Positions 39,849-61,213 of a stretch of 64,000 nt of DNA are shown in pieces (within the stretch, counting starts at the first letter, position 1; each line of letters begins with the position of its first letter). The stretch is from Candidatus Oxydemutatoraceae bacterium (GTDB taxonomy: Bacteria > Pseudomonadota > Gammaproteobacteria > Poriferisulfidales > Oxydemutatoraceae). The stretch spans positions 104,078-168,077 of the forward strand of contig OZ250161.1 of assembly GCA_965237985.1 (NCBI GenBank). The letters run 5' to 3'. A program made the translations under genes and the position numbers. The notes beneath the pieces are model-generated. The model saw only the letters and a list, made by a program, of their open reading frames with translations, ran no database searches and was not told the origin of the DNA.

Positions 39849-40529
39849 TTATTTCGCTTTGTCCGTGGCAGACTGGATCATGACTTTCATTGCGTTTATG
39901 GTTTTCTGGTAATCGGAAGAACCAAAAATTGCTGAACCGGCGACGAAAGTGTCAGCTCCTGCACTTTTGGCGGCGGCAACGTTTTCGGCATTGACTCCCC
40001 CGTCGACCTGTAGGCGGATTTGTCGTCCGCTGGCATCAATGCGGCAGCGTGCCTGTTCCAGTTTCTGGTACGCCAGCGGGAGGAATGTTTGTCCACCAAA
40101 GCCTGGATTGACTGACATCACTAAAATCATGTCTACTTTGTCGAGGACGTAATCCAGGCAGGAAAGTCCGCTCGCCGGGTTGAAAGCCAAGCCGTTTTTA
40201 CAACCACAATTACGGATCAGTTGGAGGCTTCGGTCCACGTGGTCGGTTGCTTCCGGGTGGAAGCTGATGTAATCGGCGCCGGCTTCAGCAAAGGCGGTGA
40301 TTAAACCGTCCACCGGTCGGGTCATGAGATGCACATCGATCGGGGCGTTGATGCCGTAATTCCGCAGGGCGCTGCAGACCATGGGGCCAAAACTCAAGTT
40401 GGGAACATAATGATTGTCCATGACATCAAAATGCACCATGTCGGCACCGGCATCGAGAACAGCAGACACTTCTTCTCCGAGTCGGGCAAAGTCCGCGGCG
40501 AGTATGGAGGGACAGATTTGGTCTTTCAT
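39849..40529 (-). CDS. rpe: Ribulose-phosphate 3-epimerase Rpe
   Basis: [21 protein letters not shown]...[17 protein letters not shown]. 226 aa. Confidence 0.9.
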
Positions 40530-42975
40530 ATGCTGGGTGAGCCATTATCCACCGGTCGGGTCATGAGATGCACATCGATCGGGGCGTTGATGCCGTAATT
40601 CCGCAGGGTGCTGCAGACCATGGTGTCAACACTCAAGTTGGGAACAGAATGGGCACATCGTGTTGGTTCATGACATCAAAATGCACCACGTTTGCGCCGG
40701 CATCGAGAACAGCAGACACTTCTTCTCCGAGTCGGGCAAAGTCTGCGGCGAGTATGGAGGGACAGATTTGCTCTTTCATAAGCCGGGTGAGCCATTATCC
40801 ACGGCTCGGGTCATGAGATGCACATCGATCGGGGCGTTGATGCCGTAATTAAGGGCGCTGCAGACCATGGGGCCACAACTCAAGTTGGGAACATAATGAT
40901 TGTCCATGACATCAAAATGCACCATGTTTGCGCCGGCATCGAGAACAGCAGACACTTCTTCTCCGAGTCGGGCAAAGTCCGCGGCGAGCATGGAGGGGCA
41001 GATTTGCTCTTTCATATGCTGGGTGAGCCATTATCCACGGCTCGGGTCATGGGAGGCACATCTGGTCGGGGAGCTGATGCCGTAATTCCGCAGGGCGCTG
41101 CAGACCATGGGGCCACAACTCAAGTTGGGAACAGAACAGTTGTCCATGACATCAAAATGCATCCTGTCGCGTCGGCGCCGGCATCGAGAACAGCAGACAC
41201 TTCTTCTCCGAGTTGGGCAAAGTCCGCGGCGAGTATGGAGGGACAGATTTGCTCTTTCATATGCTGGGTGAGCCATTATCTACCGGTCGGGTCATGAGAT
41301 GCACATCGATCGGGGCGTTGATGCCGTAATCCCGCAGGGCGCTGCAGACCATGGGCTCAAAACTCAAGTTGGGAACAGAACAGTTGTCCATGACATCAAA
41401 ATGCACCATGTCGGCGCCGGCATCGAGAACAGCAGACACTTCTTCTCCGAGTCGGGCAAAGTCCGCGGCGAGTATGGAGGGACAGATTTGGTCTTTCATA
41501 TGCTGGGTGAGTAATTATCCACGGCTCGGGTCATGGGAGGCACATCTGGTCAGGGAGCTGATGCCGTAATTCCGCAGGGCGCTGCAGACCATGGGGCCAA
41601 AACTCAAGTTGGGAACATAATGATTGTCCATGACATCAAAATGCACCACGTTTGCGCCGGCATCGAGAACAGCAGACACTTCTTCTCCGAGTCGGGCAAA
41701 GTCTGCGGCGAGTATGGAGGGACAGATTTGCTCTTTCATAAGCCGGGTGAGCCATTATCCACGGCTCGGGTCATGAGATGCACATCGATCGGGGCGTTGA
41801 TGCCGTTATTCCATAGGGCTCTGCAGACCATGGGGCCAAAACTCAAGTTGGGAACATAATGATTGTCCATGACATCAAAACACACCATGTTTGCGCCGGC
41901 ATCGAGAACAGCAGACACTTCTTCTCCGAGTCGGGCAAAGTCCGCGGCGAGCATGGAGGGGCAGATTTGCTCTTTCATATGCTGGGTGAGCCATTATCCA
42001 CCGGTCGGGTCATGAGATGCACATCGATCGGGGCGTTGATGCCGTAATCCCGCAGGGCGCTGCAGACCATGGGCCCAAAACTCAAGTTGGGAACAGAACA
42101 GTTGTCCATGACATCAAAATACACCATGTCGGCGCCGGCATCGAGAACAGCAGACACTTCTTCTCCGAGTCGGGCAAAGTCTGCGGCGAGCATGGAGGGA
42201 CAGATTTGCTCTTCCATATGCTGGGTGAGCCATTATCCACGGCTCGGGTCATGGGAGGCACATCGATCGGGGCGTTGATGCCGTTATTCCATAGGGCGCT
42301 GCAGACCATGGGGCCAAAACTCAAGTTGGGAACATAATGATTGTCCATGACATCAAAATGCATCCTGTCGGCGCCGGCGCCGGCATCGAGAACAGCAGAC
42401 ACTTCTTCTCCGAGTCGGGCAAAGTCTGCGGCGAGCATGGAGGGACAGATTTGCTCTTTCATATGCTGGGTGAGCCATTATCCACGGGTCGGGTCATGAG
42501 AGGCACATCGATCGGGGCGTTGATGCCGTTATTCTGCAGGGTGCTGCAGACTGTGTGGGGTCAACACTCGGGTTGGGCGACAGAATGGGTACATCGTGCT
42601 GGTTCATGACATCAAAATGCATCCTGTCGCGTCGGCACCGGCATCGAGAACAGCAGACACTTCTTCTCCGAGTCGGGCAAAGTCCGCGGCGAGTATGGAG
42701 GGACAGATTTGCTCTTTCATATGCCGGGTGATCCATTATCCACGGCTCGGGTCATGGGAGGCACATCTGGTCGGGGCGTTGATGCCGTAATCCCGCAGGG
42801 CGCTGCAGACCATGGGGCCAAAACTCAAGTTGGGGATAGAATGGGTACATTGTGCTGGTTCATGACATCAAAATGCATCCTGTCGCGTCGGCGCCGGCAT
42901 CGAGAACAGCAGACACTTCTTCTCCGAGTCGGGCAAAGTCTGCGGGGGCAGAGAGGGACGGATTTGCTCTTTCAT
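40530..42975 (-). repeat. Tandem array of ten partial copies of the rpe 5' end (about 240 bp each; start codon plus first ~75 codons), head-to-tail directly upstream of intact rpe
   Basis: Minus-strand ATGs at 40779, 41015, 41276, 41499, 41739, 41978, 42217, 42462, 42720 and 42975 each begin MKEQ/DQICPS[IM][19 protein letters not shown]. Most end [13 protein letters not shown] with the TGA overlapping the next ATG. Confidence 0.9.
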
Positions 42976-46222: not shown

Positions 46223-46711
46223 TCAGTCGGCAAGCGTGGAGTCGAGCACCGCCACCGTCATGGCTTCGCGAAATGCGGCTAACTTGCGGTGCAGCGATTC
46301 CGAGTGCGTCGCCAGCAAAGCACAAGCGAACAGGGCGGCGTTTTCCGCCCCTGCCGGACCAATAGCAAAAGTCGCGACCGGTACACCTCTGGGCATCTGC
46401 ACAATCGAGCACAGGGCATCCACTCCCTGCAACTGGCCACCAGTAACGGGCACGCCAAGCACGGGAAGCGGCGTCAGCGAGGCAATCATGCCCGGCAAAT
46501 GTGCCGCGCCGCCGGCACCGGCAATGATACATGTCAAACCGCGTTCTTTTGCGCTTTTTGCATACTCATACATCAGTGTTGGTGTGCGGTGTGCCGACAC
46601 GATTTTCTTCTCGTAGGGAATGGCGAAGCTGTCCAGGCGTTCAGCGGCGTGTCTCATGACTGGCCAGTCATTTTTGCTACCCATGAGGAGTCCGACGACT
46701 GGTTCTTTCAT
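46223..46711 (-). CDS. purE: N5-carboxyaminoimidazole ribonucleotide mutase PurE
   Basis: [14 protein letters not shown]...[14 protein letters not shown]. Confidence 0.9.
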
Positions 46712-47159
46712 GATTTTTCCAGGTTCCGGTTAAATATGCAGGGAATGGTTGCGTTCCGGTTATTCTGCCACATCTTCCGGCTCAGGTTCAGGTACTGGTA
46801 GGGCAGGGTGCCGGTAAGGGTGCAGTGGCAACCAGTTTTTCCGTCCAGATTACGTGTCATTAGAAAACGACCGGATGCTCGCACACGATCGATCGGGGAG
46901 GCATGACGAAGTTCCAGCAGGAAATGCCTGAGCTAAAAAGCAAGCATCTCAAATGGGATAAAACTGGCATGATCAGGTTGCTCAGCACCGACAGAAAATT
47001 TGACACAGAGATTCTGTAGGTTTAAAATACAGGAACTGGCTGGGTTCGTGGGCATTAGTCGGTGTTGTTGTATAGCAGCGGAGGGACTGCTGGCGTGCGA
47101 ATTATTGAACGATGCGGGTGCGAGAAGTGGCTGTGAGTGGTCATTCACTCTTGGGTGCT

Positions 47160-47314
47160 GCTGTGAGAAAAACAGCTGTGGCAAGCTGTCCCGGGTATGG
47201 GGCTGATGGCCCATGTTTCAATCAAAGCCGATAAAGGCTGTTTTTCGGATTGCCGGAGCATGGTGGAGCGTTCCTTGGCCGTGTTATGCATCCATGAGTT
47301 GAAAACTGGAGGTA
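47160..47314 (+). promoter_or_regulatory. Core of the conserved leader shared by all five paralogs (GAGAAAAACAGCTGTG(G/A)CAAGCTGTCC...GGAGGTAATGATGGCG) with SD GGAGG
   Basis: Near-identical copies end at 47314, 51100, 56095, 57129 and 61213. Paralog D retains only this ~155-bp core. Confidence 0.4.
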
Positions 47315-49180
47315 ATGATGGCGAATGAAATTAGTGGTCTGTTTGGGAAGTATGAGAGCACGTATACCACAGTTCAGAGTGGGGGAGCTCGCGAGGAGAT
47401 GAATGCCAAGGGGCAACGAAAGACGTCACGATACGAGTTGCGTGGTTTTGATGCTGATGGTCTCCGAATCAGCAAGCGTGGCGGCAATTTTCTTGACCGT
47501 GTCGTATGTTGGTTTGAAGAGCGTGTTTTTTCGCTTACGAGAAGTGGAACCCGTTCCTCGCTACGGCAAAAATCCAGCAATCAATTTGCTTCTGATGTTG
47601 CCGGAGCACTTCGAGAAATAGACCCGGATCTGGTTGCTGAGGGTAGAGATATCAAGGACCATGATTTGATGAAACAAATAGAATCTGTTCGGGTGCGGGA
47701 TTTGCCACTTCGGTCAGGCTTTGTTCGCGGTATTCTTCAGGAGGTTGCGACCTTGGCGCGGGGAGCAGGGCATGGAGGTGATCTGTCAGAGTTGGCCATA
47801 AAGGCTTTTCCCGTACAGGATGAAGAGCCAGAGCAACCGGCTGCCGCCCTGGAAGTGGCAGCGGATGCCCCAGACAATCGCGAAGACGGAGGGGTGACCC
47901 ACCCGAATCTATCTTTGCCCGATGCACTCAAGGGTGGGCAATATCGGCAGGAAGGTGATGGATATCGTACAGTCAACCCTGGTGACCAGAAAGTGGAAGT
48001 GGATGGGCAAGTCAGACACAACAGAGACAAAGGAATGCCCGGGCGGGCTCAATCTCCGCAAGATGCCCCCTGGGGTGGTGGTGTAAGTTTGGAAGATAGT
48101 CATAGTGATGGAAGCTTGGAAGATGGTTGTAGTATGGGCTTCGATGGTGATTTTTTAGTTGGGAATTCTCGAGCAATGCCGACTGGTCCAGTTGATGGGC
48201 AATTTAGCTTTAAGGATCTGAGTGAAGAAGCATTGCTCAAGGTGCTCCGCACCCCGGTGATGTCTAAAATAGTTATCCCAGAGCTGAATGCTCAGAATTT
48301 TTTTGAGAAGGAAGAGCGCTCTGCAGAGAGTGAAGCGGCAGCTGGAGAAATTGGCCGTTTTGTGACTACCCTAATTGTTGGTGGTTTTGGTCCTGTATAT
48401 GTACAAGAAGTTTTGGATAAACACCTGGATGAGGTGAGACAACTTAATCAGCAACAGGACAAACAGCCTAATGGGAAAGCGGAGCAAGCCAAAGCACTGA
48501 ATAAAGTAGTTGACTCACTCTTAACCATTGATGAGTTTATGATTGACGCGAGGCAGACCGTCCTAGAAGGAGCTAGCCGCTATCATCAGAAGGGAATAAC
48601 TGTCGAGCAGCAGGGGGAGGAAGGAGGTATGCCCGGCGCACACCAATTTTTTGCTACTCAGCAAGTGATGCAGAATTGGCCTTTTCCTTCTAATCCATTT
48701 GCGGAGGAATTTAGCTTTACGGATCTGGGGGATAACGAATTTCTTGCACAACTCGGCGAACACGTGAAGTCTGAAATAGTTGTCCCAGAGCTGCAAAGTC
48801 AGAATTTTTGGAAGGATGGGCATGGGGTAAATGAGAATAAAGCGAAGATCGTTGATGGAATCTCCGGGGCGGTGGCTGGTGAGATTGCTGTCGTTTCTCA
48901 AAGTGTTGAACAGATAAAACAGACTGCGAATGAGGCACTGGGAGTATTAAAACTGTCTGTTAAAACTGATGATACAGACCCGCCGTCTGATGAGCAACTG
49001 CAAGCCAAGGCGCTGAAGAGCGTAGTTCAACGATACCAAGCAGCGGATACTGAAGGCCGTTTGAAGGGGGTCGTCGTGCGGGAACTTGGCCATCATTTGG
49101 CACCACCAGACGGTGTGCGAGGTAAAAAGGAAGTGGGTGTAGTCGACGAAGACCTTCTTCCTGATGCTGGTTCTAGGTGA
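47315..49180 (+). CDS. Paralog A of the unknown repeat-protein family (621 aa); its 3' part degenerates into out-of-frame module fragments up to about 49940, where a truncated IS sits
   Basis: Conserved N-terminus MMANEISGLFGKY...RKTSRYELRGFD...ISKRGGNFLDRVVCWFE. Two F-S-F-x-D-L...PV-x-S-x-I-V-x-PEL modules. Further modules continue in other frames (49177..49437). Confidence 0.65.
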   Translation: MMANEISGLFGKYESTYTTVQSGGAREEMNAKGQRKTSRYELRGFDADGLRISKRGGNFLDRVVCWFEERVFSLTRSGTRSSLRQKSSNQFASDVAGALREIDPDLVAEGRDIKDHDLMKQIESVRVRDLPLRSGFVRGILQEVATLARGAGHGGDLSELAIKAFPVQDEEPEQPAAALEVAADAPDNREDGGVTHPNLSLPDALKGGQYRQEGDGYRTVNPGDQKVEVDGQVRHNRDKGMPGRAQSPQDAPWGGGVSLEDSHSDGSLEDGCSMGFDGDFLVGNSRAMPTGPVDGQFSFKDLSEEALLKVLRTPVMSKIVIPELNAQNFFEKEERSAESEAAAGEIGRFVTTLIVGGFGPVYVQEVLDKHLDEVRQLNQQQDKQPNGKAEQAKALNKVVDSLLTIDEFMIDARQTVLEGASRYHQKGITVEQQGEEGGMPGAHQFFATQQVMQNWPFPSNPFAEEFSFTDLGDNEFLAQLGEHVKSEIVVPELQSQNFWKDGHGVNENKAKIVDGISGAVAGEIAVVSQSVEQIKQTANEALGVLKLSVKTDDTDPPSDEQLQAKALKSVVQRYQAADTEGRLKGVVVRELGHHLAPPDGVRGKKEVGVVDEDLLPDAGSR

Positions 49181-49944
49181 GAAGTCCATCGGCAACTTTG
49201 GCGGATCTGAGCAATGAACGATTGTTTGAGAGACTCAGCGAACCGGTGAAGTCTGAAATGGTTATCCCGAAGCTGAAGGATCGGAATTATTGGGCGGAGG
49301 GTACACGTGATGAGGAAACGCGGGGAAAGATGGTTGATAGCATTGTCGATGAAGTGACTGAAAAGTTTGTTGCTGCTTTGGGAGATTTTCAAGCTCTAAG
49401 AGTTACTGCGAATGAAAAACTGGGATTATTAAATTAAGAATGAATATTGATGAACGAGACCCGCCTTCTGATGTGAAACTCCAAGCCGTGGCACTGGAGA
49501 CCGTCGTAAAAGAAGCTGCTGGCAACGACCAGCTGAACGAGGCCGTAACGATGATAATTAACCATCGTCTTAGGGAACCGGAACAAGACAATCCTGAAGA
49601 GAAAAATTTCGCTATCTAGGCAGCACCACAATACACTACGCCAGGCATGCAGCAAGCTGATGAAGTTCGTGCTACCCACCAAGGACGGAATGATGAGCAA
49701 TTATCTTTTCAAGAAATGTCTGCCAAAGGGTTTTTAAAAAGGCTCAGTGAGCATGTAGAAGTCCATTATGTTACTCCTGCACTTTAGGGGGTTGGTTATG
49801 GTTCGGAAAGGGAACGGATGAAAAAAGTAATGACGGTGAACGCAACTGTCTGGTTTGTCGTGAATATAAAGAATCGTCAGATTGCTGACATCCAGGCGCG
49901 AGCACAGGAAAGCTACAATGCAAAAGCCCGTTTCTACGATGCAA

Positions 49945-50528: not shown

Positions 50529-51100
50529 CCGGTTAAATATGCAGGGAATGGTTGCGTTCCGGTTATTCTGCCACATCTTCCGGCTCAGGTTCAGGTACTG
50601 GTAGGGTAGGGTGCCGGTAAGGGTGCAGTGGCAACCAGTTTTTCCGTCCAGATTACGTGTCATTAGAAAACGACCGAATGCTCGCACACGATCGATCGGG
50701 GGGGCATGACGAAGTTCCAGCAGGAAATGCCTGAGCTAAAAAGCAAGCATCTCAAATGGGATAAAACTGGCATGCTCAGGTTGCTCAGCACCGACAGAAA
50801 ATTTGACACAGAGATTCTGTAGGTTTAGAATACAGGGACTGGCTGGGTTCGCGGCGGTGGTTCGTGGGCATTAGTCGGTGTTGTTGTATAGCAGCGGAGG
50901 GACTGCTGGCGTGCGAATTATTGAACGATGCGGGTGCGAGAAGTGGCTGTGAGAAAAACAGCTGTGACAAGCTGTCCCGGGTATGGGGCTGATGGCCCAT
51001 GTTTCAATCAAAGCCGATAAAGGCTGTTTTTCGGATTGCCGGAGCATGGTGGAGCGTTCCTTGGCCGTGTTATGCATCCATGAGTTGAAAACTGGAGGTA

Positions 51101-54100
51101 ATGATGGCGAGTAAAATTGGTGGTCTGTTTGGGAAGTATTCGGGCACGTATGCCACAAGTGGTCGGGGTGGTGTGGGGCGCGAGGTGCTGGATGCCAAGG
51201 GGCAACGAAAAACGTCACGATACGAGTTGCGTGGTTTTGATGATAATGTTCCCCGAATCAGCAAGCGTGGCGGCAATTTTCTTGACCGTGTCGTATGTTG
51301 GCTTGAAGACCGTGTTTTTTCGCTTACGAGAAGTGGGAAATCTCCCTCGCTACGGCAAAAATCCAGCTATCAATTTGCTTATGATGTTGGTGAAGCACTT
51401 CTGGAAATAGACCCGAATCTGGGTGCTGAGGGTGGAAATGTCGACACACATGAGCTGGTGCGACGAATAGAATCTGTTCGGGTGCGGGATTTGTCACTTC
51501 GGTCAGGCTTTGTTCGCGATATTCTTCAGGAGGTTGCGACCTTGGCGCGGGAAGCAGATCATGGAGACACGCTGCCAGAGTTGGCCAGAAACGCTTTTCC
51601 CGTACAGAATCCTGTACGGGATGAAGACCCAGAGCAACCGGCTGCCGACCCGGAAGCGGGTGCCCCAGGCAATAATCACGAAGACGAAGAGGCGTTCCAG
51701 CAGGTTCTACCTCCTCCAGATGCACCCGTGGGTAGGGAAAATCGGCAGGAAGGTGGTGAAGATGTAGCCCCCCCTGATAGACCAGTTGAGCTTAATCAAG
51801 AAGTGGCGCCTCAGCTTGTTGCTAGACCAGCTGAGGCGCTATTTAACTTTACGGGTCTGAGTGAAGAAGAATTGTTCGACAAACTCCGCGACCCGGTGAG
51901 GTCTAAAATGGTTAAACCATTGCTGGATCAGCGGAATTTTTGGAAGGATGGGGACTATGAAGAGAAAAACAAGGCAGCTGATGCTATGGTCCATTTGGTG
52001 TCTGCCAAACTTGTTGGGGGTTTTGGTGGTTGTGAAAACGTACAAAAAGTTATGAATAATCACCTGGGTACTTTGAGGAATTTTGATATTCCAGAGGACC
52101 AGCGGACTGATGGGCAACTGCAAACAGAGGCACTGAATATCACAGTTCAGACATTCTCAGAAAATGAGGACGCTCTTGAGAGTACGTATCGGATCGTCGT
52201 AGAGGGAATTGGTAATTATACAGGTAGAAAAGAAGGCGTTTTTCTTGGCGCGGAAAATGTCGAGCAGCAGCCTATTGTTCACCCGGAAATGGGTGTCCCA
52301 GGCAATGGTCGCGGAGACGAAGAGCTGCCCCACCCGGTTCTACCTCCTCCCAATGTATTCGCCGCGCGGGGGGGATATCGGCAGCAGGAAGGTGGTGCAT
52401 ATGTTGCAGTCCAGCGTGATGGACCAGTTGCGCCTCATCAAGAAATGCAGATTCAGCCTGCTGCTGATCCAGTTGAGGAGAAATTTAGCTTTACGAATCT
52501 GAATGATGAACAATTGTTCGACAAACTCAACGACCCGGTGAAGTCTAAAATAGTTAACCCATTGCTGGAAGATCGGGATTTTTGGGAGGGTGGGTACAAT
52601 GAAGAGAAAGGCAAAGTAGTTGATGAGATTGTCCGTTCGGTGTCTGCCCGGCTTGTTGCTGTTTTGGGAAATCATGAACAGGTGAAACTTGATGCGAATG
52701 ACAAACTGGAAGTTTTGACGTTTTATGATGATAAAACTGATAAGCTGACTGATATGCAACTGCAAAGAGGGGCACTGGGTGTCGTAGTTCAAGAACACAT
52801 GGAAAAGGATGCAGAGCAGACGAAGCGGATCGTCATGGCGGGAATTAACCGTTATTTGGGTCAAGGCGTTCCTCTTGGCGTGGAAAATGTCGAGCAGCCG
52901 CCTTTTGCTGGTCCAGTTGAGGCGCCATTTAGCTTTGCGGATCTGGATGATGGACAATTGTTCGACAAATTACGCGCCCCGGTGATGTCTAAAATAGTTA
53001 ACCCATTGCTGGCCGAACAGGGTTTTTTGAAGGGTAGGTACAGTGACGAGGAACAAAAGGTAGTTGATAGGATTGTCCGTCTTGTGTCTATCCGGCTTGT
53101 TACTTCTTTTGGAAATTATAATGAGGTACGAGATGCTGCGAATAAAAACCTGGATACTTTGAGAGAACAAGACCAGGTGGGGCAGACTGATGCGCAACTG
53201 CAAACCTGGGCGCTGGAGCTCGTGGCTGTAGAATACGACGAAGAAAAGGCTGCAGGTCAAGCGATGCAGGTCGTCACACAGGAAATTAGTCGTCATGGCG
53301 CTCATGGGAGGGAGAAAGTGGATATGCACCCCGGCCCCAAGTCTACTGCACCTCCTGAAGATGTGGCGCAGGTTCAGCTTGCTGCTGATTCAGTTAGGGG
53401 GGTATTTAGCTTTATGGGTCTGGAAAATGAAGAATTTTATAGCAGACTCAGCGAACCGGTGAAGTCTAAAATAGTTGCCCCAGAGCTGAGAGAGCAGGAT
53501 TTTTTGCAGGATGGGGCAGATGAGAAGACAGTGGATATCGTTAGGTGGATTTCTAGGACGGTGGCTGGTGAGATTGTTGCCACTTCTGGAGGTATTGGAG
53601 AGGTAAAACAGGCTGCGAATGAAGCACTGGAATTATATAGAGTTGCTGTTGATGAAAATAACCCGCTGTCTGATGAGCAACTGCAATCCAGGGTGCTGGA
53701 GAACGTAGTTGAACAATACCAAGGAAAAGGGGCTGATGTAGTAGGCAGGTTGAAGGAGACCGTCGCGACGGAACTTGTCTATCATTTGAACAAAGCAAAG
53801 AAACCAAGCGCGCCAGTTGAAGAGCAGAAAGAGGTGGCGGCTGATCGGCCGGCAAAACCACAATACGCTATGCCAGGCGTGCAAGCTGAAGGAGTTCATG
53901 CTGCCCAACAAAGAGCTCTTGATGAGCAATTACCTTTTCAACAAATGTCTTCCGAAGGGTTTTTGAAAAGGCTCAGTGAGCAGGTAGAAGCCGAATATGT
54001 GCTTCCTGTACTTGGTGCTATGGAGAGGCAGGATGGTCCGGAAAAGGACAAGATGAAAGAAATAATGACGGTGAACGCAACTGTCTGGTTTGTCGCGAGT

Positions 54101-54532
54101 ATTAAGGGAGGTAAGACTGATATAATCAAGCAGGGAGCACAGGAAAGCTACAATGTAAAAGCCACTTTCTATGGACCTGAAGTTCAGGGGGGCGAGATTC
54201 AAAACGAAGTACTGAAGAATTTGTGTGTTGATGGTTTGACGGGTAGGGAGAAAGAAAAGCTGTATAAGATAGCTGGAGATAACACTTTGATTCAAGCTGG
54301 TCTGGGGAGGGATGATGATGTGTATATTGGAAAGGTCATTTTGGATAGAATAGCGGGCTATTTGGAAGTGGAAGCCCGGCGCCTCCCCGCCCACGGATCA
54401 GCTGTGGAGCACCAGCATGGTAACAACATTATCGACCCTAACAAAGAGGCTGTTGCTGGTTCTCAATCTATCGTGCCTGAGCCTGATGATTTTAGCCAGC
54501 CGGTTGGACCCACCCGTTCCGGTAGGTCGTAA
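51101..54532 (+). CDS. Paralog B, the only apparently intact member (1143 aa): conserved N-domain, four to five ~150-aa modules, distinct C-terminal domain
   Basis: Uninterrupted ORF. Modules begin FNFTGLSEEELFDKLRDPVRSKMVKPLL, FSFTNLNDEQLFDKLNDPVKSKIVNPLL, FSFADLDDGQLFDKLRAPVMSKIVNPLL and FSFMGLENEEFYSRLSEPVKSKIVAPEL. Confidence 0.7.
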   Translation: MMASKIGGLFGKYSGTYATSGRGGVGREVLDAKGQRKTSRYELRGFDDNVPRISKRGGNFLDRVVCWLEDRVFSLTRSGKSPSLRQKSSYQFAYDVGEALLEIDPNLGAEGGNVDTHELVRRIESVRVRDLSLRSGFVRDILQEVATLAREADHGDTLPELARNAFPVQNPVRDEDPEQPAADPEAGAPGNNHEDEEAFQQVLPPPDAPVGRENRQEGGEDVAPPDRPVELNQEVAPQLVARPAEALFNFTGLSEEELFDKLRDPVRSKMVKPLLDQRNFWKDGDYEEKNKAADAMVHLVSAKLVGGFGGCENVQKVMNNHLGTLRNFDIPEDQRTDGQLQTEALNITVQTFSENEDALESTYRIVVEGIGNYTGRKEGVFLGAENVEQQPIVHPEMGVPGNGRGDEELPHPVLPPPNVFAARGGYRQQEGGAYVAVQRDGPVAPHQEMQIQPAADPVEEKFSFTNLNDEQLFDKLNDPVKSKIVNPLLEDRDFWEGGYNEEKGKVVDEIVRSVSARLVAVLGNHEQVKLDANDKLEVLTFYDDKTDKLTDMQLQRGALGVVVQEHMEKDAEQTKRIVMAGINRYLGQGVPLGVENVEQPPFAGPVEAPFSFADLDDGQLFDKLRAPVMSKIVNPLLAEQGFLKGRYSDEEQKVVDRIVRLVSIRLVTSFGNYNEVRDAANKNLDTLREQDQVGQTDAQLQTWALELVAVEYDEEKAAGQAMQVVTQEISRHGAHGREKVDMHPGPKSTAPPEDVAQVQLAADSVRGVFSFMGLENEEFYSRLSEPVKSKIVAPELREQDFLQDGADEKTVDIVRWISRTVAGEIVATSGGIGEVKQAANEALELYRVAVDENNPLSDEQLQSRVLENVVEQYQGKGADVVGRLKETVATELVYHLNKAKKPSAPVEEQKEVAADRPAKPQYAMPGVQAEGVHAAQQRALDEQLPFQQMSSEGFLKRLSEQVEAEYVLPVLGAMERQDGPEKDKMKEIMTVNATVWFVASIKGGKTDIIKQGAQESYNVKATFYGPEVQGGEIQNEVLKNLCVDGLTGREKEKLYKIAGDNTLIQAGLGRDDDVYIGKVILDRIAGYLEVEARRLPAHGSAVEHQHGNNIIDPNKEAVAGSQSIVPEPDDFSQPVGPTRSGRS

Positions 54533-55279: not shown

Positions 55280-55489
55280 TTACTCCGTGTGGAGTATCGT
55301 TCCCCGATTGCTTTCTCCCCGTTCAGACTCTGAACATTGTTTCCGCGGCCTTAGTGTTGGTGTGCGGTGTGCCGACACGATTTTCTTCTCGTAGGGAATG
55401 GCGAAGCTGTCCAGGCGTTCAGCGGCGTGTCTCATGACTGGCCAGTCATTTTTGCTACCCATGAGGAGTCCGACGACTGGTTCTTTCAT
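55280..55489 (-). pseudogene. Duplicated 5' fragment of purE (first 46 codons, then divergence)
   Basis: [46 protein letters not shown] is identical to PurE. Part of a segmental duplication that carries the paralog leader. Confidence 0.7.
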
Positions 55490-56095
55490 GATTTTTCCAG
55501 GTTCCGGTTAAATATGCAGGGAATGGTTGCGTTCCGGTTATTCTGCCACATCTTCCGGCTCAGGTTCAGGTACTGGTAGGGCAGGGTGCCGGTAAGGGTG
55601 CAGTGGCAACCAGTTTTTCCGTCCAGATTACGTGTCATTAGAAAACGACCGGATGCTCGCACACGATCGATCGGGGGGGCATGACGAAGTTCCAGCAGGA
55701 AATGCCTGAGCTAAAAAGCAAGCATCTCAAATGGGATAAAACCGGCATGATCAGGTTGCTCAGCACCGACAGAAAATTTGACACAGAGATTCTGTTGGTT
55801 TAGAATACAGGGACTGGCTGGGTTCGCGTGCGGTGGTTCAGTGGACATTCGTCGGTGTTGTTGTATAGCAGCGGAGGGGCTGTCGGCGTGCGAATCATTG
55901 AACGATGCGGGTGCGAGAAGTGGCTGTGAGTGGTCATTCACTCTTGGGTGCTGCTGTGAGAAAAACAGCTGTGGCAAGCTGTCCCGGGTATGGGGCTGAT
56001 GGCCCATGTTTCAATCAAAGCCGATAAAGGCTGTTTTTCGGATTGCCGGAGCATGGTGGAGCGCATATGCATCCATGAGTTGAAAACTGGAGGTA

Positions 56096-56659
56096 ATGAT
56101 GGCGAATGAAATTAGTGGTCTGTTTGGGAAGTATGAGAGCACGTATACCACAGTTCAGAGTGGGGGAGCTCGCGAGGAGATGGATGCCAAGGGGCAACGA
56201 AAGACGTCACGATACGAGTTGCGTGGTTTTGATGCTGATGGTCTCCGAATCAGCAAGCGTGGCGGCAATTTTCTTGACCGTGTCGTATGTTGGTTTGAAG
56301 ACCGTGTTTTTTCGCTTACGAGAGTGGATGCGACTATCTCTATACGGCAACAATCCAGCAAACAATTTGCTGAAGATGTTTCCGCAGCACTTATAGCAAT
56401 GGACCCGAAACTGAAAGTTGTAGACCCGAATCCGGAAGCTGTGGGCCATAATCTGAAAGAGGGGGAAATAGATCTCAGCAAACATGATTTGATGCAACAA
56501 ATAGAATCTGTTCGGGTGCGGGATTTGCCACTTCGGTCAGGCTTTGTTCTCGGTATTCTTCAGGAGGTTGCGAACTTGGCGCGGATGAATGAAGGTAGTG
56601 TAGGCAATCTGCCAGATTTGGCCAAAAAGGCTTTTCCCGACAATCGAGCCAACCCCTAA
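56096..56659 (+). CDS. Paralog C, truncated (187 aa), followed by out-of-frame module fragments up to about 57000
   Basis: Same conserved N-terminus, then stop. ORF 56748..57140 continues with an FSFTNLNDEQLYGRL module in another frame. Confidence 0.5.
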   Translation: MMANEISGLFGKYESTYTTVQSGGAREEMDAKGQRKTSRYELRGFDADGLRISKRGGNFLDRVVCWFEDRVFSLTRVDATISIRQQSSKQFAEDVSAALIAMDPKLKVVDPNPEAVGHNLKEGEIDLSKHDLMQQIESVRVRDLPLRSGFVLGILQEVANLARMNEGSVGNLPDLAKKAFPDNRANP

Positions 56660-57129
56660 CCGGCTGTCCACCCGGCTCTACCTTTTTCCAATGCATTCGG
56701 GGGTAGGGGAAATCGACAGGAAGGTGGTGAGGATGTAGCCCGCCCTGATGGATCAGCTGAGCCTCATCAAGGAGTGCAGATTCAGCCTGTTGCTGGATCC
56801 AGTTGAGGAGCAATTTAGCTTTACGAATCTGAATGATGAACAATTGTACGGCAGACTCCGCGGCCCGGTGAGGTCTGAAATAGTTAACCCATGTCTGAAC
56901 GAGCAGAATTTTTGGAAGGATGGGGAAGATGAAGGGAAAATGCGGTTCGTTGATGAGATTGTCCATGAGGTGGCTGTGAGAAAAACAGCTGTGGCAAGCT
57001 GTCCCGGGTATGGTCTGATGATCAATGTTTCAATCAAAGCCGACAGATGCTGTTGTTCTGGTTGCCGGAGTATGGTGGAGCGTTCCTTGGCCGCATTATG
57101 CATCCATGAGTTGAAAACTGGAGGCAATT

Positions 57130-58368
57130 ATGGCGAATGATATTGGCGGTCTGTTTAAAAAGTATTCGGGTACGTATTCCACGGCTCAGGGTTCCACGGC
57201 TCAGGGTGATGTGGGTCGCGAGGTGCTGGATGCCAAGGGGCAACGAAAGACGTCTCGGCACGAGTTGCGTGGTTTTGATGCTGGTGTTCCCCGAATCAGC
57301 AAGCGTGGCGGTAATTTTCTTGACCGTGTCGTATGTTGGCTTGAAGACCGTGTTTTTTCGCTTACGAGAAGTGGGAGCCGTCTCTCGCCACGGCAAAAAT
57401 CCAGCAATCAATTTGCTGCTGATGTTGCTGAAGCACTTCGAGAAATAGACCCGGATCTGGTTGCTGAGGGTGGAGGTGGCGAGAAACATGATCTGGTGCG
57501 ACGAATAGAATCTGTTCAGGTGCGGGATTTGCCACTTCGGTCAGGCTTTGTTCGCGGTATTCTTCAGGAGGTTGCGACCTTGGCGCGGAGAGCAGAGCAT
57601 GGAGACAAGCTGCCAGATTTGGCCAAAAACGCTTTTCCCGTACAGGATGGAAGGCTAGGGCAACCGGCTGTCCACCCGGAAGTGGGTGCCCAAGACAATC
57701 GCGAAGCCGAAGAGGTGATCCACCAGAATCTACCTTTGCCCCATGCACTCGGGGGTAGGGGAAATCGGCAGGAAGGTGGTGAAGATGTAGCCCGCCCTGA
57801 TGGATCAGCTGAGCCTCATCAAGGAGTGCAGATTCAGCCTGTTGCTGATCAAGTTGAGGAGCCATTTAGCTTTGCGGATCTGAATGATGAACAACTTTTG
57901 GGCAGACTCAGAGAACCGGTGAAGTCTAAAATGATTATCCCAGTGCTGCGCGAACGGGGTTTATGGGCGGCGGGGGCAGGTGATGAGCAAGAGCGGGAGC
58001 AGATAGCTGATAGGATTGTCGATGATGTGGCTAACGCGGTTGTTGCTGCTGGTAAAGGTGGTCTTGAACAGCTAAAACTTGATGCGGATGGTTCACTGGG
58101 TTTATTGAGAACTGTTGCTTCTTCTGGCCGTGAGGTCGTGGTGACTGATAGGCAACTGCAAAACAGGGCATTGAAAGCCGTAGTTGAACAACACATAGGA
58201 AGACTTTCTGCAGTCCGGTCGGTGGAGATCGTCACGGAGATAATTGACCGTCATCTTAGAGGGCGACCAGACGGTCTTAGCATGGAAAATCACGGGCAAG
58301 AGGTAGTGGATGATGAGTGGCTGGCAGTGCCAGGCGAGCAAGCTAAAGCAGTTCATACTGCCCAATAA
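57130..58368 (+). CDS. Paralog D (412 aa); its C-terminal region is cut by an IS481-family insertion at 58558
   Basis: Conserved N-terminus (MANDIGGLFKKYSGTY...) and two modules. After the stop, in-frame remnants of the family C-terminal domain (MTVNATVCFVVNIK) run into the IS end. Confidence 0.6.
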   Translation: MANDIGGLFKKYSGTYSTAQGSTAQGDVGREVLDAKGQRKTSRHELRGFDAGVPRISKRGGNFLDRVVCWLEDRVFSLTRSGSRLSPRQKSSNQFAADVAEALREIDPDLVAEGGGGEKHDLVRRIESVQVRDLPLRSGFVRGILQEVATLARRAEHGDKLPDLAKNAFPVQDGRLGQPAVHPEVGAQDNREAEEVIHQNLPLPHALGGRGNRQEGGEDVARPDGSAEPHQGVQIQPVADQVEEPFSFADLNDEQLLGRLREPVKSKMIIPVLRERGLWAAGAGDEQEREQIADRIVDDVANAVVAAGKGGLEQLKLDADGSLGLLRTVASSGREVVVTDRQLQNRALKAVVEQHIGRLSAVRSVEIVTEIIDRHLRGRPDGLSMENHGQEVVDDEWLAVPGEQAKAVHTAQ

Positions 58369-58557
58369 AGACAGAATGATGAGTAATTATCTTTTCAAGA
58401 AATGTCTTCCGAAGGGTTTTTGAAAAGGCTCAGTGAGCAGGTAGAAGCCCAATATGTTCTTCCTCATGCTAAGGGGGTTCAGAATGGTCCGGAAAGGGAA
58501 CGGATGAAAAAAATAATGACGGTGAACGCAACTGTCTGTTTTGTCGTGAATATAAAG

Positions 58558-60756
58558 TGTAGAAGTTTAGACCCAATCTGACACATCACTCAATCAAGCT
58601 GAGCGCAGCGAAGCTTGATTGAGTGAGAGTTACCCGTTTAGATGTAATTGCAATATTAACATCCAAACAAAGAGGTAACTCTCATGATCCATACTAACGA
58701 TAAAGTCATTAAATATAAAGTCGGCCTACTCAATCTGGCTGAAGAACTCGGAAACGTCTCAAAAGCCTGCAAGATGATGGGCGTATCCAGAGATACTTTC
58801 TATCGATACAAAGCCGCTGCTGATGAAGGTGGCATTGAAGCACTTTTTGATCAAAACAGGCGTATCGCGAACCTCAAAAATAGAGTTGATCCTGCGATTG
58901 AATCCATCGTCGTTGAACACGCTCTGGAAGAACCTGCCCATGGGCAGACCCGAACCAGCAATGAGCTACGCAAAATGGGGACATATTATTTCGCCGACGG
59001 GCGTACGAAGTATTTGGTTACGCCATAACCTGGCTTGCTTTAAATGTAGAAGTTTAGACCCAATCTGACACATCACTCAATCAAGCTGAGCGCAGCGAAG
59101 CTTGATTGAGTGAGAGTTACCCGTTTAGATGTAATTGCAATATTAACATCCAAACAAAGAGGTAACTCTCATGATCCATACTAACGATAAAGTCATTAAA
59201 TATAAAGTCGGCCTACTCAATCTGGCTGAAGAACTCGGAAACGTCTCAAAAGCCTGCAAGATGATGGGCGTATCCAGAGATACTTTCTATCGATACAAAG
59301 CCGCTGCTGATGAAGGTGGCATTGAAGCACTTTTTGATCAAAACAGGCGTATCGTGAACCTCAAAAATAGAGTTGATCCTGCGATTGAATCCATCGTCGT
59401 TGAACACGCTCTGGAAGAACCTGCCCATGGGCAGACCCGAACCAGCAATGAGCTACGCAAAATGGGGACATATTATTTCGCCGACGGGCGTACGAAGTAT
59501 TTGGTTACGCCATAACCTGGCTTGCTTTAAATGTAGAAGTTTAGACCCAATCTGACACATCACTCAATCAAGCTGAGCGCAGCGAAGCTTGATTGAGTGA
59601 GAGTTACCCGTTTAGATGTAATTGCAATATTAACATCCAAACAAAGAGGTAACTCTCATGATCCATACTAACGATAAAGTCATTAAATATAAAGTCGGCC
59701 TACTCAATCTGGCTGAAGAACTCGGAAACGTCTCAAAAGCCTGCAAGATGATGGGCGTATCCAGAGATACTTTCTATCGATACAAAGCCGCTGCTGATGA
59801 AGGTGGCATTGAAGCACTTTTTGATCAAAACAGGCGTATCGTGAACCTCAAAAATAGAGTTGATCCTGCGATTGAATCCATCGTCGTTGAACACGCTCTG
59901 GAAGAACCTGCCCATGGGCAGACCCGAACCAGCAATGAGCTACGCAAAATGGGGACATATTATTTCGCCGACGGGCGTACGAAGTATTTGGTTACGCCAT
60001 AACCTGGCTTGCCTTAAAGATCGACTCAAAGCACTATCCGATAAAGTGGCCACTGAAGGCCTGATTCTTACTGAACCTCAAGTCGCTGCCATGGAACGCA
60101 AACAAGATGACGATCAGGCCTGTGGTGAGATAGAAACAGCCCACCCTGGCTATTTGGGCTCGCAAGACACTTACTATGTGGGTATATTCAAGGATATTGA
60201 CCGAGTCTATCAGCAGACGTTTGTTGATACTTACAGTAAAGTCGCTCACGCCAAGCTCTACACCACCAAAACGCCGATTACCGCCGCTGATATGCTCAAT
60301 GATCGTGTGTTGCCGTTCTATGAGGAACAAGCACTTCCCATGCTGCGGATTCTCACCGACCGTGGTACAGAATATTGTGGTCGAGCTGACCAACATGATT
60401 ACCAGCTCTACCTGGCTTTGAATGATATTGAGCACACCAAAACCAAAGTCAGGTCACCGCAAACCAATGGCATTTGTGAACGCTTCCACAAGACCCTTCT
60501 CAATGAGTTTTACCAAGTGACCTTGCGTAAGAAAATCTATCAATCGATAGAAGAATTACAAATTGATCTTGACAAATGGCTCATCAAATACAATACTCAA
60601 CGAACTCACCAAGGCAAAATGTGCTGTGGGAGAACGCCGATGGAAACTCTCATCGACGGCAAATCAATCTGGAAGGAAAAGTCTTTGAACTAAACTTAAC
60701 CTGACAGTCGGTTGCTGATAAACGGGTAACTGTCAGATCAAGTCTGAATTTCTACA
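58558..60756 (+). mobile_element. IS481-family insertion sequence whose left end (terminal repeat, leader and first 114 codons) is tandemly triplicated (3 x 487 bp)
   Basis: Terminal repeats TGTAGAAGTTTAGACCCAATCTGACA at 58558 and TGTCAGATCAAGTCTGAATTTCTACA ending at 60756. Unit starts at 58558, 59045 and 59532. rve-type DDE ORF at 59860..60693. Confidence 0.8.
59658..60693 (+). pseudogene. IS481-family transposase (HTH plus rve DDE domain) with a +1 frameshift near 59960 relative to the inverted copy
   Basis: ORF A ends ...ELRKMGTYYFADGRTKYLVTP-stop while ORF B continues HIISPTGVRSIWLRHNL. The copy at 63.3 kb reads ELRKMGTFVSPTGVRSIW in one frame. The difference is GACATATTATTTCGCC versus GACATTTGTTTCGCC. 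Confidence 0.7.
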
Positions 60757-61213
60757 CATTAGAAAACGACCGGATGCTCGCACACGATCGATCGGGGGGG
60801 CATGACGAAGTTCCAGCAGGAAATGCCTGAGCTAAAAAGCAAGCATCTCAAATGGGATAAAACTGGCATGATCAGGTTGCTCAGCACCGACAGAAAATTT
60901 GACACAGAGATTCTGTAGGTTTAAAATACAGGAACTGGCTGGGTTCGTGGATATTCGTCGGTGTTGTTGTATAGTAGCGGAGGGGCTGCTGGCGTGCGAA
61001 TTATTGAACGATGCGGGTGCGAGAAGTGGCTGTGAGTGGTCATTCACTCTTGGGTGCTGCTGTGAGAAAAACAGCTGTGACAAGCTGTCCCGGGTATGGG
61101 GCTGATGGCCCATGTTTCAATCAAAGCAGATAAAGGCTGTTTTTCGGATTGCCGGAGCATGATGGAGCGTTCCTTGGTCGTGTTATGCATCCATGAATTG
61201 AAAACTGGAGGTA

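Follow-up and report, generated by a model that had tools for sequence, protein, structure and literature searches.

The final 17 kb of the 64,000-nt stretch analyzed here (the window; positions 104,078 to 168,077 of contig OZ250161.1, Candidatus Oxydemutatoraceae bacterium assembly GCA_965237985.1) holds, downstream of a divergent purE gene, five paralogs of an orphan gene family, and each of them is preceded by a full or partial copy of the same leader. We consider it rather likely that this leader serves each cassette of the tandem array as an expression module of its own. From its 5′ end, the module would consist of about 290 nt of carried-along purE-side DNA, a strong sigma-70-type promoter, a ~280-nt 5′ untranslated region (5′UTR), and a GGAGG ribosome-binding site with the start codon at 47318, and it would have been copied along with the gene by segmental duplication. 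The likeness of the copies would be upheld by gene conversion and by unequal or illegitimate recombination between cassettes, with ordinary purifying constraint on the promoter and UTR DNA added on top, while the coding regions diverge faster. Full copies would be transcribed and translated under the same control, and the leader together with the conserved N-terminal coding block would provide ~1 kb of homology for recombination between cassettes.

The leader copies, the genes that they precede, and the purE side of the locus are as follows.

46712-47317, plus strand: leader A, the entire intergenic region between purE and paralog A (blastn and MAFFT)
50529-51103, plus strand: leader B, 91.7% identical to A (50529-51100), with a 30-nt deletion and a 13-nt insertion
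55490-56098, plus strand: leader C, 93.5% identical to A (55490-56095), with a 15-nt insertion and a 12-nt deletion
56973-57129, plus strand: leader D, partial, 90.9% identical to A (56973-57124), final 153 nt only, without a promoter
60760-61216, plus strand: leader E, 97.6% identical to A (60757-61213), 5′ end cut by an insertion sequence (IS) element
47318-49180, plus strand: paralog A
51104-54532, plus strand: paralog B, 1143 aa
56099-56659, plus strand: paralog C, 187 aa
57130-58368, plus strand: paralog D
61217-62236, plus strand: paralog E
46223-46711, minus strand: purE (N5-CAIR mutase), from translation; divergent neighbor of leader A
46712-46999: purE-side upstream block, copied along in B and C, and in E only from 46858 on
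47130-47137 and 47160-47167, plus strand: 8-nt direct repeats GCTGTGAG (repeat comparison and alignment)

The copies are observed directly. Leader A (46712-47314) gave five blastn matches across the 64-kb window and no others, in agreement with the MAFFT alignment, and a profile of the leader’s final 115 nt found the same five sites and nowhere else in the 64 kb. An earlier reading of the same DNA (the original prediction) had described near-identical leaders ahead of each paralog, with only the end of the leader kept at D; this is borne out by both methods, with four near-full copies and a stub at D whose match is limited to the final 153 nt. The extents given for two copies required revision. 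Leader C is a copy, but its homology continues past the predicted boundary for 137 nt into a duplicated purE 5′ fragment, and leader E is a copy whose true start coincides with the end of an IS element (60759/60760). Copy A doubles as the upstream region of purE, as had been proposed, since purE (46223-46711, minus strand) adjoins 46712; within the upstream block, 46755-46872 is ~65% like the purE upstream region of a related genome (clade O, below). The direct repeats said to surround a segment lost in B were also found: B lacks exactly 30 nt, from the first GCTGTGAG repeat up to the second, and the homology of D begins at this same repeat region.

Comparisons were made among the window genome (W) and two related clades, O (the ‘Candidatus Oxydemutatoraceae bacterium’ chromosome) and P (the ‘candidatus Porisulfidus’ chromosome). 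The control features identified in the leader are listed here.

47000-47028, plus strand: sigma-70-type promoter of leader A, TTGACA-17-TAAAAT, 11/12 consensus match (promoter scan)
50803-50831 (B), 55778-55806 (C), and 60899-60927 (E), plus strand: equivalent promoters
47035-47317, plus strand: predicted 5′UTR of ~280 nt, its start placed from the promoter position
47308-47312, continuing through 47320, plus strand: Shine-Dalgarno GGAGG followed by ATGATG (alignment)

A consensus scan gives a single strong site in leader A, and the top three scan matches in the 15-kb array are the equivalent sites of B, C, and E. All four promoters match the consensus at 11 of 12 positions, as TTGACA-17-TAAAAT or with TAGAAT as the −10 box, and the spacer is constant at 17 nt. 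The motif is also conserved beyond the window: in 22 of the 22 full leaders from the three related sponge-symbiont genomes a TAnAAT −10 box lies 264-292 nt from the ATG, and MAFFT brings the −10 boxes of all three clades into register. The O and P leaders have TTGGAT-like hexamers 17-18 nt upstream of TAnAAT, plus a common GAAAAT stretch. The original prediction held that identical leaders would allow promoter sharing; instead, each full copy carries its own promoter, and D alone is without one.

In the leader’s final 110 nt, no second promoter was seen either by eye or by promoter scan. A sigma-28 reading of the octamer GCCGATAA at 47228-47235, which we take to be the FliA (sigma-28) −10 consensus, was rejected, as the −35 element is absent or misspaced and on visual inspection D, E, O, and P do not retain the octamer. 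Neither of two phase-variation features, a repeat tract in the promoter spacer or flanking inverted repeats, was found in the window leaders. Leaders B, C, and E each carry a G7 homopolymer (GATCGGGGGGGCATG), located ~100 nt before the −35 box (the equivalent in A, 46893-46899, reads GGGGAGG), and a role for it in phase variation is unlikely, as it lies well outside the promoter. The leaders are not enriched in CsrA/RsmA-type GGA motifs, with 6-9 found versus 5.5-6.4 expected (p = 0.11-0.64).

The GGAGG had been placed 8 nt before the ATG; the actual spacing is 2 nt to the first ATG (47315) and 5 nt to the second (47318). Translation likely starts at the second, 47318, because D has the second ATG only and the database protein is 620 aa long. 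With promoter, predicted 5′UTR, and ribosome-binding site all inside it, the leader is regulatory in the plain sense, as the original prediction supposed.

Signatures of recombination can likewise be read from the alignments, beginning with a further feature that travels with leader C.

55353-55489, minus strand: duplicated purE 5′ fragment, 137 nt, 100% identical to 46575-46711

The identity does not end with the fragment, as 55353-55652 equals 46575-46874 at 100%, and the fragment copy marks a very recent duplication or conversion event. Overall, A and C form a tract of ~100% identity from −750, within the purE fragment, to ~+200 (~codon 70), after which identity falls. Variable sites in the leaders show three patterns, each incompatible with the other two, that occupy consecutive blocks within 160 nt: A and E are set against B and C at 47025, 47034, and a common insertion at 47047; A and B against C and E at 47052, 47057, and 47086; and A and C against B and E at 47181. 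The region upstream of D, beyond the stop of C (56660-56976), is decayed repeat-coding DNA, ~80% like D’s own first repeat (57719-58032), and meets a B-type leader, at its position −159, through a GTGGCTGTGAG microhomology. From this fusion of a decayed repeat to a leader end we infer a deletion that removed the 3′ part of C together with the promoter of D. On the sequence, C and D would be the two ends of one deletion, and D could be read only by read-through from C.

Each copy boundary goes back to an accident of its own kind (an IS insertion, deletions between repeats, or a deletion at microhomology). The A-C tract that runs through the purE fragment, the incompatible blocks, and the accidental boundaries all point to recombination, and not to selection alone, as the source of the likeness of the copies; the purE fragment in particular has no reason to be conserved, so the A-C identity there points to recombination. 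The final 155 nt of A, B, C, and E are 96-99% identical, compared with 86-92% for the first 500 coding nt. Homologous recombination between paralogs, which the original prediction had raised as something that identical leaders would allow, is supported by the mosaic of incompatible blocks and by the 100% A-C tract that crosses purE fragment, leader, and coding sequence. The copies appear to be alike mainly through segmental duplication and gene conversion.

Divergence was compared at several depths, with the synonymous rate of the paralogs themselves as our preferred baseline. Each line gives the identity of leader and coding start, followed by leader divergence (d) and synonymous divergence (dS).

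Within W: identity 95% and 87%; d 0.05, dS 0.11
Within P: identity 93% and 87%; d 0.07, dS 0.19
Within O: identity 87% and 83%; d 0.14, dS 0.28
O vs. P: identity 78% and 78%; d 0.26, dS 0.40
W vs. O or P: identity 47-49% and 64%; d 0.53, dS 1.1 (final 110 nt)

The ratio of leader divergence to synonymous divergence of the paralogs stays at 0.4-0.6 at each depth, which we read as ordinary intergenic constraint. In bacteria, purifying selection generally acts on intergenic regions too, though less strongly than on genes (PMC5890482). The description of the leader as conserved is accurate within a genome, but between genera it is not: in comparisons of W with O or P, the 5′ 175 nt of the UTR are not alignable and the final 110 nt are 60-64% identical, no higher than the 65% at purE four-fold sites. 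Leaders of O and P are 74-79% alike, versus ~85% at four-fold sites of flanking housekeeping genes and 89% in an intergenic spacer; since these leaders are less alike than neutral flanking sites, identity alone is no argument for selection. Among A, B, C, and E, the first 500 coding nt have a synonymous divergence of 0.09-0.21 and a dN/dS of 1.1-1.8. For the N-terminal domain (47318-47820 in A), dN/dS is 1.2-1.7 among window paralogs (1.3 as a single figure), in contrast to 0.33 between genera. The domain is under purifying selection between genera and not among the window paralogs, a shift that would reflect either diversifying or relaxed selection after duplication.

The leader’s 3′ part also contains two putative RNA hairpins.

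47226-47245, plus strand: hairpin H1 (AGCC/GGCU, 47226-47229 with 47236-47239) and a U5 run (47241-47245), from folds; kept in three clades
47247-47293, plus strand: extended hairpin H2, core 47257-47264 with 47278-47285, from folds

The hairpin plus T-run of the original prediction exists, although it lies ~70-90 nt before the start and not ~110. The broader proposal of a structured RNA is not borne out for the leader as a whole. A search of the window with Rfam at the gathering score returned two tRNAs only, and a search of 42000-64000 at E ≤ 1 returned only sub-threshold psRNA2 matches, which all fall in IS copies, at ends of the element, and overlap the leaders by 17 nt at the 5′ edge of leader E. 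Whole-UTR folding energies were ordinary in the three clades compared with shuffled sequences (z = −1.19, −0.70, −1.04, and −0.07). What stands of the proposal is modest covariation for the two hairpins in the final ~110 nt. Alifold run on O and P alone recovers H1 and the H2 core, and on transfer of this structure to the window without alignment gaps, pairing is retained at 5 of the 6 pairs in H1 and 7 of the 8 in the H2 core, with 7 of the 9 changed pairs still paired (p ~0.02 by our own estimate, versus a 37.5% chance rate). A covariance model of O and P sequences only scored the five window leaders at 62, 62, 55.7, 43.9, and 41.5 bits, compared with 32, 31.9, 28.1, 29.8, and 25 bits for a sequence-only model, a gain from structure of ~30 bits; the alignment used to select the model’s full structure also contained the window, and independence from that alignment is limited to H1 and the H2 core. 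In leaders A and B, 19 of the 20 model pairs are standard. Paired cells amount to 88-96% versus 27-56% in slid controls, with double changes at 4-5 pairs, in three lineages only, and the shuffle control for such pair counting can be exceeded by relatedness alone.

Individual compensatory changes are found both within and between genomes. In E, 47263 G to A and 47279 C to T together turn a G-C pair into A-U, and these are two of only four changes in E in this stretch; in D, a C-G pair has become U-A; and between clades there are two such changes in the core and one at an inner pair. Not all copies keep the structure, as the U-run is broken in D and the 12-nt deletion in leader C takes out the 3′ arm of H2. 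In the window, H1 has 4 bp followed by U5 and is not called by a terminator scan; in the one O-genome leader scanned, it passes (6-bp stem, T6). Two longer-range pairings were rejected. A helix sequestering the Shine-Dalgarno sequence, suggested by alifold (columns 86-97 with 341-352), is nearly all G-U in the window and of chance-size complementarity. A candidate antiterminator, a perfect 10-nt pairing of 47167-47176 with 47237-47246 (duplex z ~−2, p ~0.03-0.04), occurs in the window only and is absent, non-significant, or out of register in O and P. The original prediction suggested testing for attenuator activity; an attenuator switch with such an alternative pairing is not conserved across genomes.

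We regard the evidence for H1 and H2 in the final ~110 nt as suggestive, not decisive. The two hairpins and the U-run are probably a real RNA feature that affects the fate of the transcript, perhaps through pausing or weak termination, stability, or factor binding. It is possible, though on balance doubtful, that the final ~110 nt or the whole UTR is instead a dedicated cis-regulatory RNA, either an attenuator in which H1 and the U-run end transcription except where an alternative pairing or a factor intervenes, or an Hfq or RNase E type site formed by a U-run between two hairpins. This would fit the retention of H1, U-run, and H2 in three clades with compensatory changes, the ~30 bits contributed by structure in a model whose sequences come from outside the window, the O copy of H1 that passes the terminator scan, the 10-nt window pairing that could mask the U-run together with the 3′ arm of H1, and the divergence of the final 110 nt at about half the synonymous rate. 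It has to be set against the lack of any Rfam family even at E ≤ 1, the ordinary folding energies, the failure of the 4-bp window H1 in the terminator scan, the absence or non-significance of the alternative pairing in O and P, the damage to H2 in C and to the U-run in D, and a between-genera identity (~62%) not above that of purE four-fold sites (65%). Less likely again is that H1, U-run, and H2 are an undescribed, lineage-restricted cis-regulatory RNA that sets the output of the array, with its fast-diversifying and putatively host-directed proteins, in sponge-symbiont Gammaproteobacteria, for example by conditional termination or factor binding, with gene conversion keeping the element uniform so that one signal would reach all paralogs.

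Explanations in which the leader is coding, or is itself mobile, bring in four more features.

46933-47214, minus strand: 93-aa open reading frame (ORF), rejected as a gene
47197-47328, plus strand: 43-codon upstream ORF (uORF) overlapping the main start, open in 5/5 window copies
58553-60759, plus strand: IS element (HTH_29 orfA and rve orfB), abutting leader E
62575-63810, minus strand: second IS copy, inverted

To the idea that the conservation is coding, with the 93-aa ORF or another embedded ORF before the promoter as a true gene, we give almost no credence: the frame is intact in A and E and lengthened in C, but it is shifted in B, has no Pfam match, and shows no tblastx similarity to the O and P leaders. 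The original prediction was right that this frame is not kept across copies; it was not right that this is the only embedded ORF, given the 43-codon frame on the plus strand. That frame, open in all five copies, formally touches what the original prediction named as refuting its non-coding view, a protein-coding frame conserved across all copies, and it is a quite improbable, though not negligible, proposal that the uORF, through its translation or its peptide, controls the paralog. In its favor, even the diverged D has the frame open, C’s 12-nt deletion preserves it, and changes in B at 47325 and 47327 are silent in it (GAA TGA to GAG TAA) yet non-synonymous for the main frame; synonymous events number 10 of 22 versus 6.6 expected, pairwise pN/pS is 0.30 versus 4.2 and 0.63 in the other frames, and long ORFs that end at a TGA overlapping the ATGATG are also found in O and P leaders. 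Against it, the excess of synonymous events falls short of significance (p = 0.08; with D left out, 0.056; uncorrected for three frames tried), 119 substitution events in the O and P leaders show no codon-position bias in any frame (31 synonymous versus 30 expected), the frame differs between clades owing to 1-2-nt indels, no good ribosome-binding site precedes 47197 or 47206, and there is no Pfam match or homologue signal. In practice the leader appears to be non-coding, as originally proposed, with the minus-strand ORF broken in B, no Pfam matches, and unbiased events in O and P.

In favor of mobility, cassette E lies between the two inverted IS copies and leader E begins at an IS end, in a locus rich in rearrangements. 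The inner arms of the two IS copies (60256-60759 and 62575-63078) are 100% complementary, so that cassette E is bracketed like a composite transposon, and the first 487 bp of the left IS, orfA included, are triplicated at 99-100% identity (58553-60018). We nevertheless find it very improbable that the paralogs are spread by a mobile element (IS, MITE, or cassette) of which the leader forms an end or an inner portion. Neither terminal inverted repeats nor target duplications accompany the leader, and it occurs only ahead of family genes; its copies have different boundaries (46712/46728, the equivalents of 46575 and of 46858, and −153), each with its own local cause; and three genomes have the array at one and the same chromosomal location (purE ... 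lysS-gmk).

The expression-module reading is the one we prefer, and the following points weigh against it. In O and P the −35 hexamer is weak (3-4/6) and the promoter scan does not call the site. The ~280-nt 5′UTR predicted throughout the family depends on a transcription start placed from the promoter motif. A divergence ratio of ~0.5 would fit constraint and more frequent conversion alike, and cannot separate them. The upstream 290 nt are highly similar in B and C, which could mean that this DNA has a function for the paralogs and is not baggage. The limits given above for the covariance model and for the pair counts from three lineages count here as well. Taken as a whole, the finding is real but mostly ordinary; only the H1, U-run, and H2 module might be new.

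All five paralogs begin with a common N-terminal domain of ~165 aa, after which come ~150-aa repeats in varying number. Neither the proteins nor their N-terminal domain had a Pfam match (purK, next to purE, does have Pfam matches), and the AlphaFold model of the domain (pLDDT 75) had no PDB fold match at E < 1. A and D look truncated relative to B, which at 1143 aa seems to be the only full-length copy. One block recurs at 49642-49936 (after the stop of A), 53871-54171 (inside the coding sequence of B), and 58328-58622 (at the end of D).

The family is small. A search of 5.8 billion sequences found 11 homologues, and a profile search of 1.84 billion cluster representatives found 25 members. 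Relatives are located in long-read metagenome assemblies, namely the 1.92-Mb O chromosome, the 3.0-Mb P chromosome, and further contigs of the P sample; a GTDB scan found relatives in the O and P genomes only, and a scan of JGI metagenome proteins found none. The DNA pattern AAAGGCYGTTTTTYGKRTTGC had 13 matches in the JGI data, each of pattern length only and consistent with chance. Ca. Oxydemutatoraceae belong to the Gammaproteobacteria, order Chromatiales, and Porisulfidus has been described as a known sponge symbiont (PMC12988363). The gene order trpCDGE-rpe-adh-purK-purE followed by the array is found in clade O and in one further contig, and the window has the same order from trp to purE; the array is followed by lysS-gmk in clades O and P and in a second contig. 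In the three genomes with flanks seen, the array is at one chromosomal site, between purE and lysS. These three are the window genome, a Ca. Oxydemutatoraceae MAG, and contigs from the metagenome behind a Ca. Porisulfidus MAG, and both named taxa are symbionts of sponges. The purE protein of the window is 78-83% identical to those of these symbionts, and this identity, together with the matching gene order, indicates that the window comes from a relative of these sponge symbionts.

Several family members elsewhere differ in context. Two family genes in the Oxydemutatoraceae genome are separated from the preceding gene by only ~90-110 nt (L001 12064-12152 and 13682-13790), keep just the final ~35-80 nt of the leader, and look operonic, much like D. 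Three distant short members (P0020, P0022, and P0023) have several PPxY-like motifs (PPPDY, PPAY, and PPSY) in proline-rich tails after the N-terminal domain. Two such members with readable contigs (L025 1888-2607 and L026 8001-8660) each stand alone at a second locus, next to a fatty-acid desaturase and with a short, different leader. PPxY is a ligand of the WW domains of NEDD4-type ligases (PMC12720080). Given these motifs, a host-directed role of the family proteins is plausible, though unproven.

Outside the array, the window contains ~11 tandem copies of the 5′ end of rpe (40309-42975, minus strand; period 239-245 bp, 86-89% alike), which continue from an intact rpe (39849-40529). Each copy seems to open with an rpe-like N-terminus (MKEQICPS...), and one ORF among them (42082-42462) matches positions 2-75 of Pfam Ribul_P_3_epim. 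Such tandem amplification of a gene’s 5′ fragment is unusual.

Multigene families with 5′ regions that evolve in concert are known from host-associated bacteria, among them the bab/sab outer-membrane paralogs of Helicobacter pylori and the opa genes of Neisseria. These share with the window near-identical upstream and 5′ coding regions, divergent downstream regions, mosaic tracts, and promoters of their own. Unlike them, the window proteins are unrelated, with no signal peptide evident and no repeat-tract phase switch found, and the copies form one tandem array at a fixed housekeeping site. The vsp, vlp, and vpma loci of Mycoplasma have highly conserved 5′ non-coding regions for each gene and repeat-rich variable coding parts, and they resemble the window in the conserved 5′ block of each member, the tandem-repeat coding regions, and the clustering of the genes. 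They switch by means of a poly(A) tract in the promoter or by site-specific inversion that moves a single promoter, whereas every full window copy has a complete promoter with a 17-nt spacer and no flanking recombinase sites or inverted repeats. Rfam attenuators and riboswitches in long 5′UTRs are matched in the ~280-nt predicted UTR, the hairpin with its U-run, and some covariation; they differ from the window in that the latter has no Rfam match, a weak stem, no conserved alternative pairing, and ordinary folding energy. For the genes, and not the leader, a likeness may be drawn to Ehrlichia TRP32, a tandem-repeat effector of an intracellular bacterium that engages NEDD4-type ligases (PMC5768648), and to PY-motif adaptors of WW-domain ligases (PMC12720080): the window proteins are repeat-rich orphans of a host-associated bacterium, and the distant members have PPxY-like motifs, but the N-terminal domain has no PDB fold match.

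Identity within one genome is insufficient by itself for the leader to be reported as a new class of RNA. If the terminal hairpins are functional, they would offer a handle on how the symbiont regulates candidate host-interaction genes. The array is a compact natural example of uniform control sequences that would drive diversifying coding sequences.

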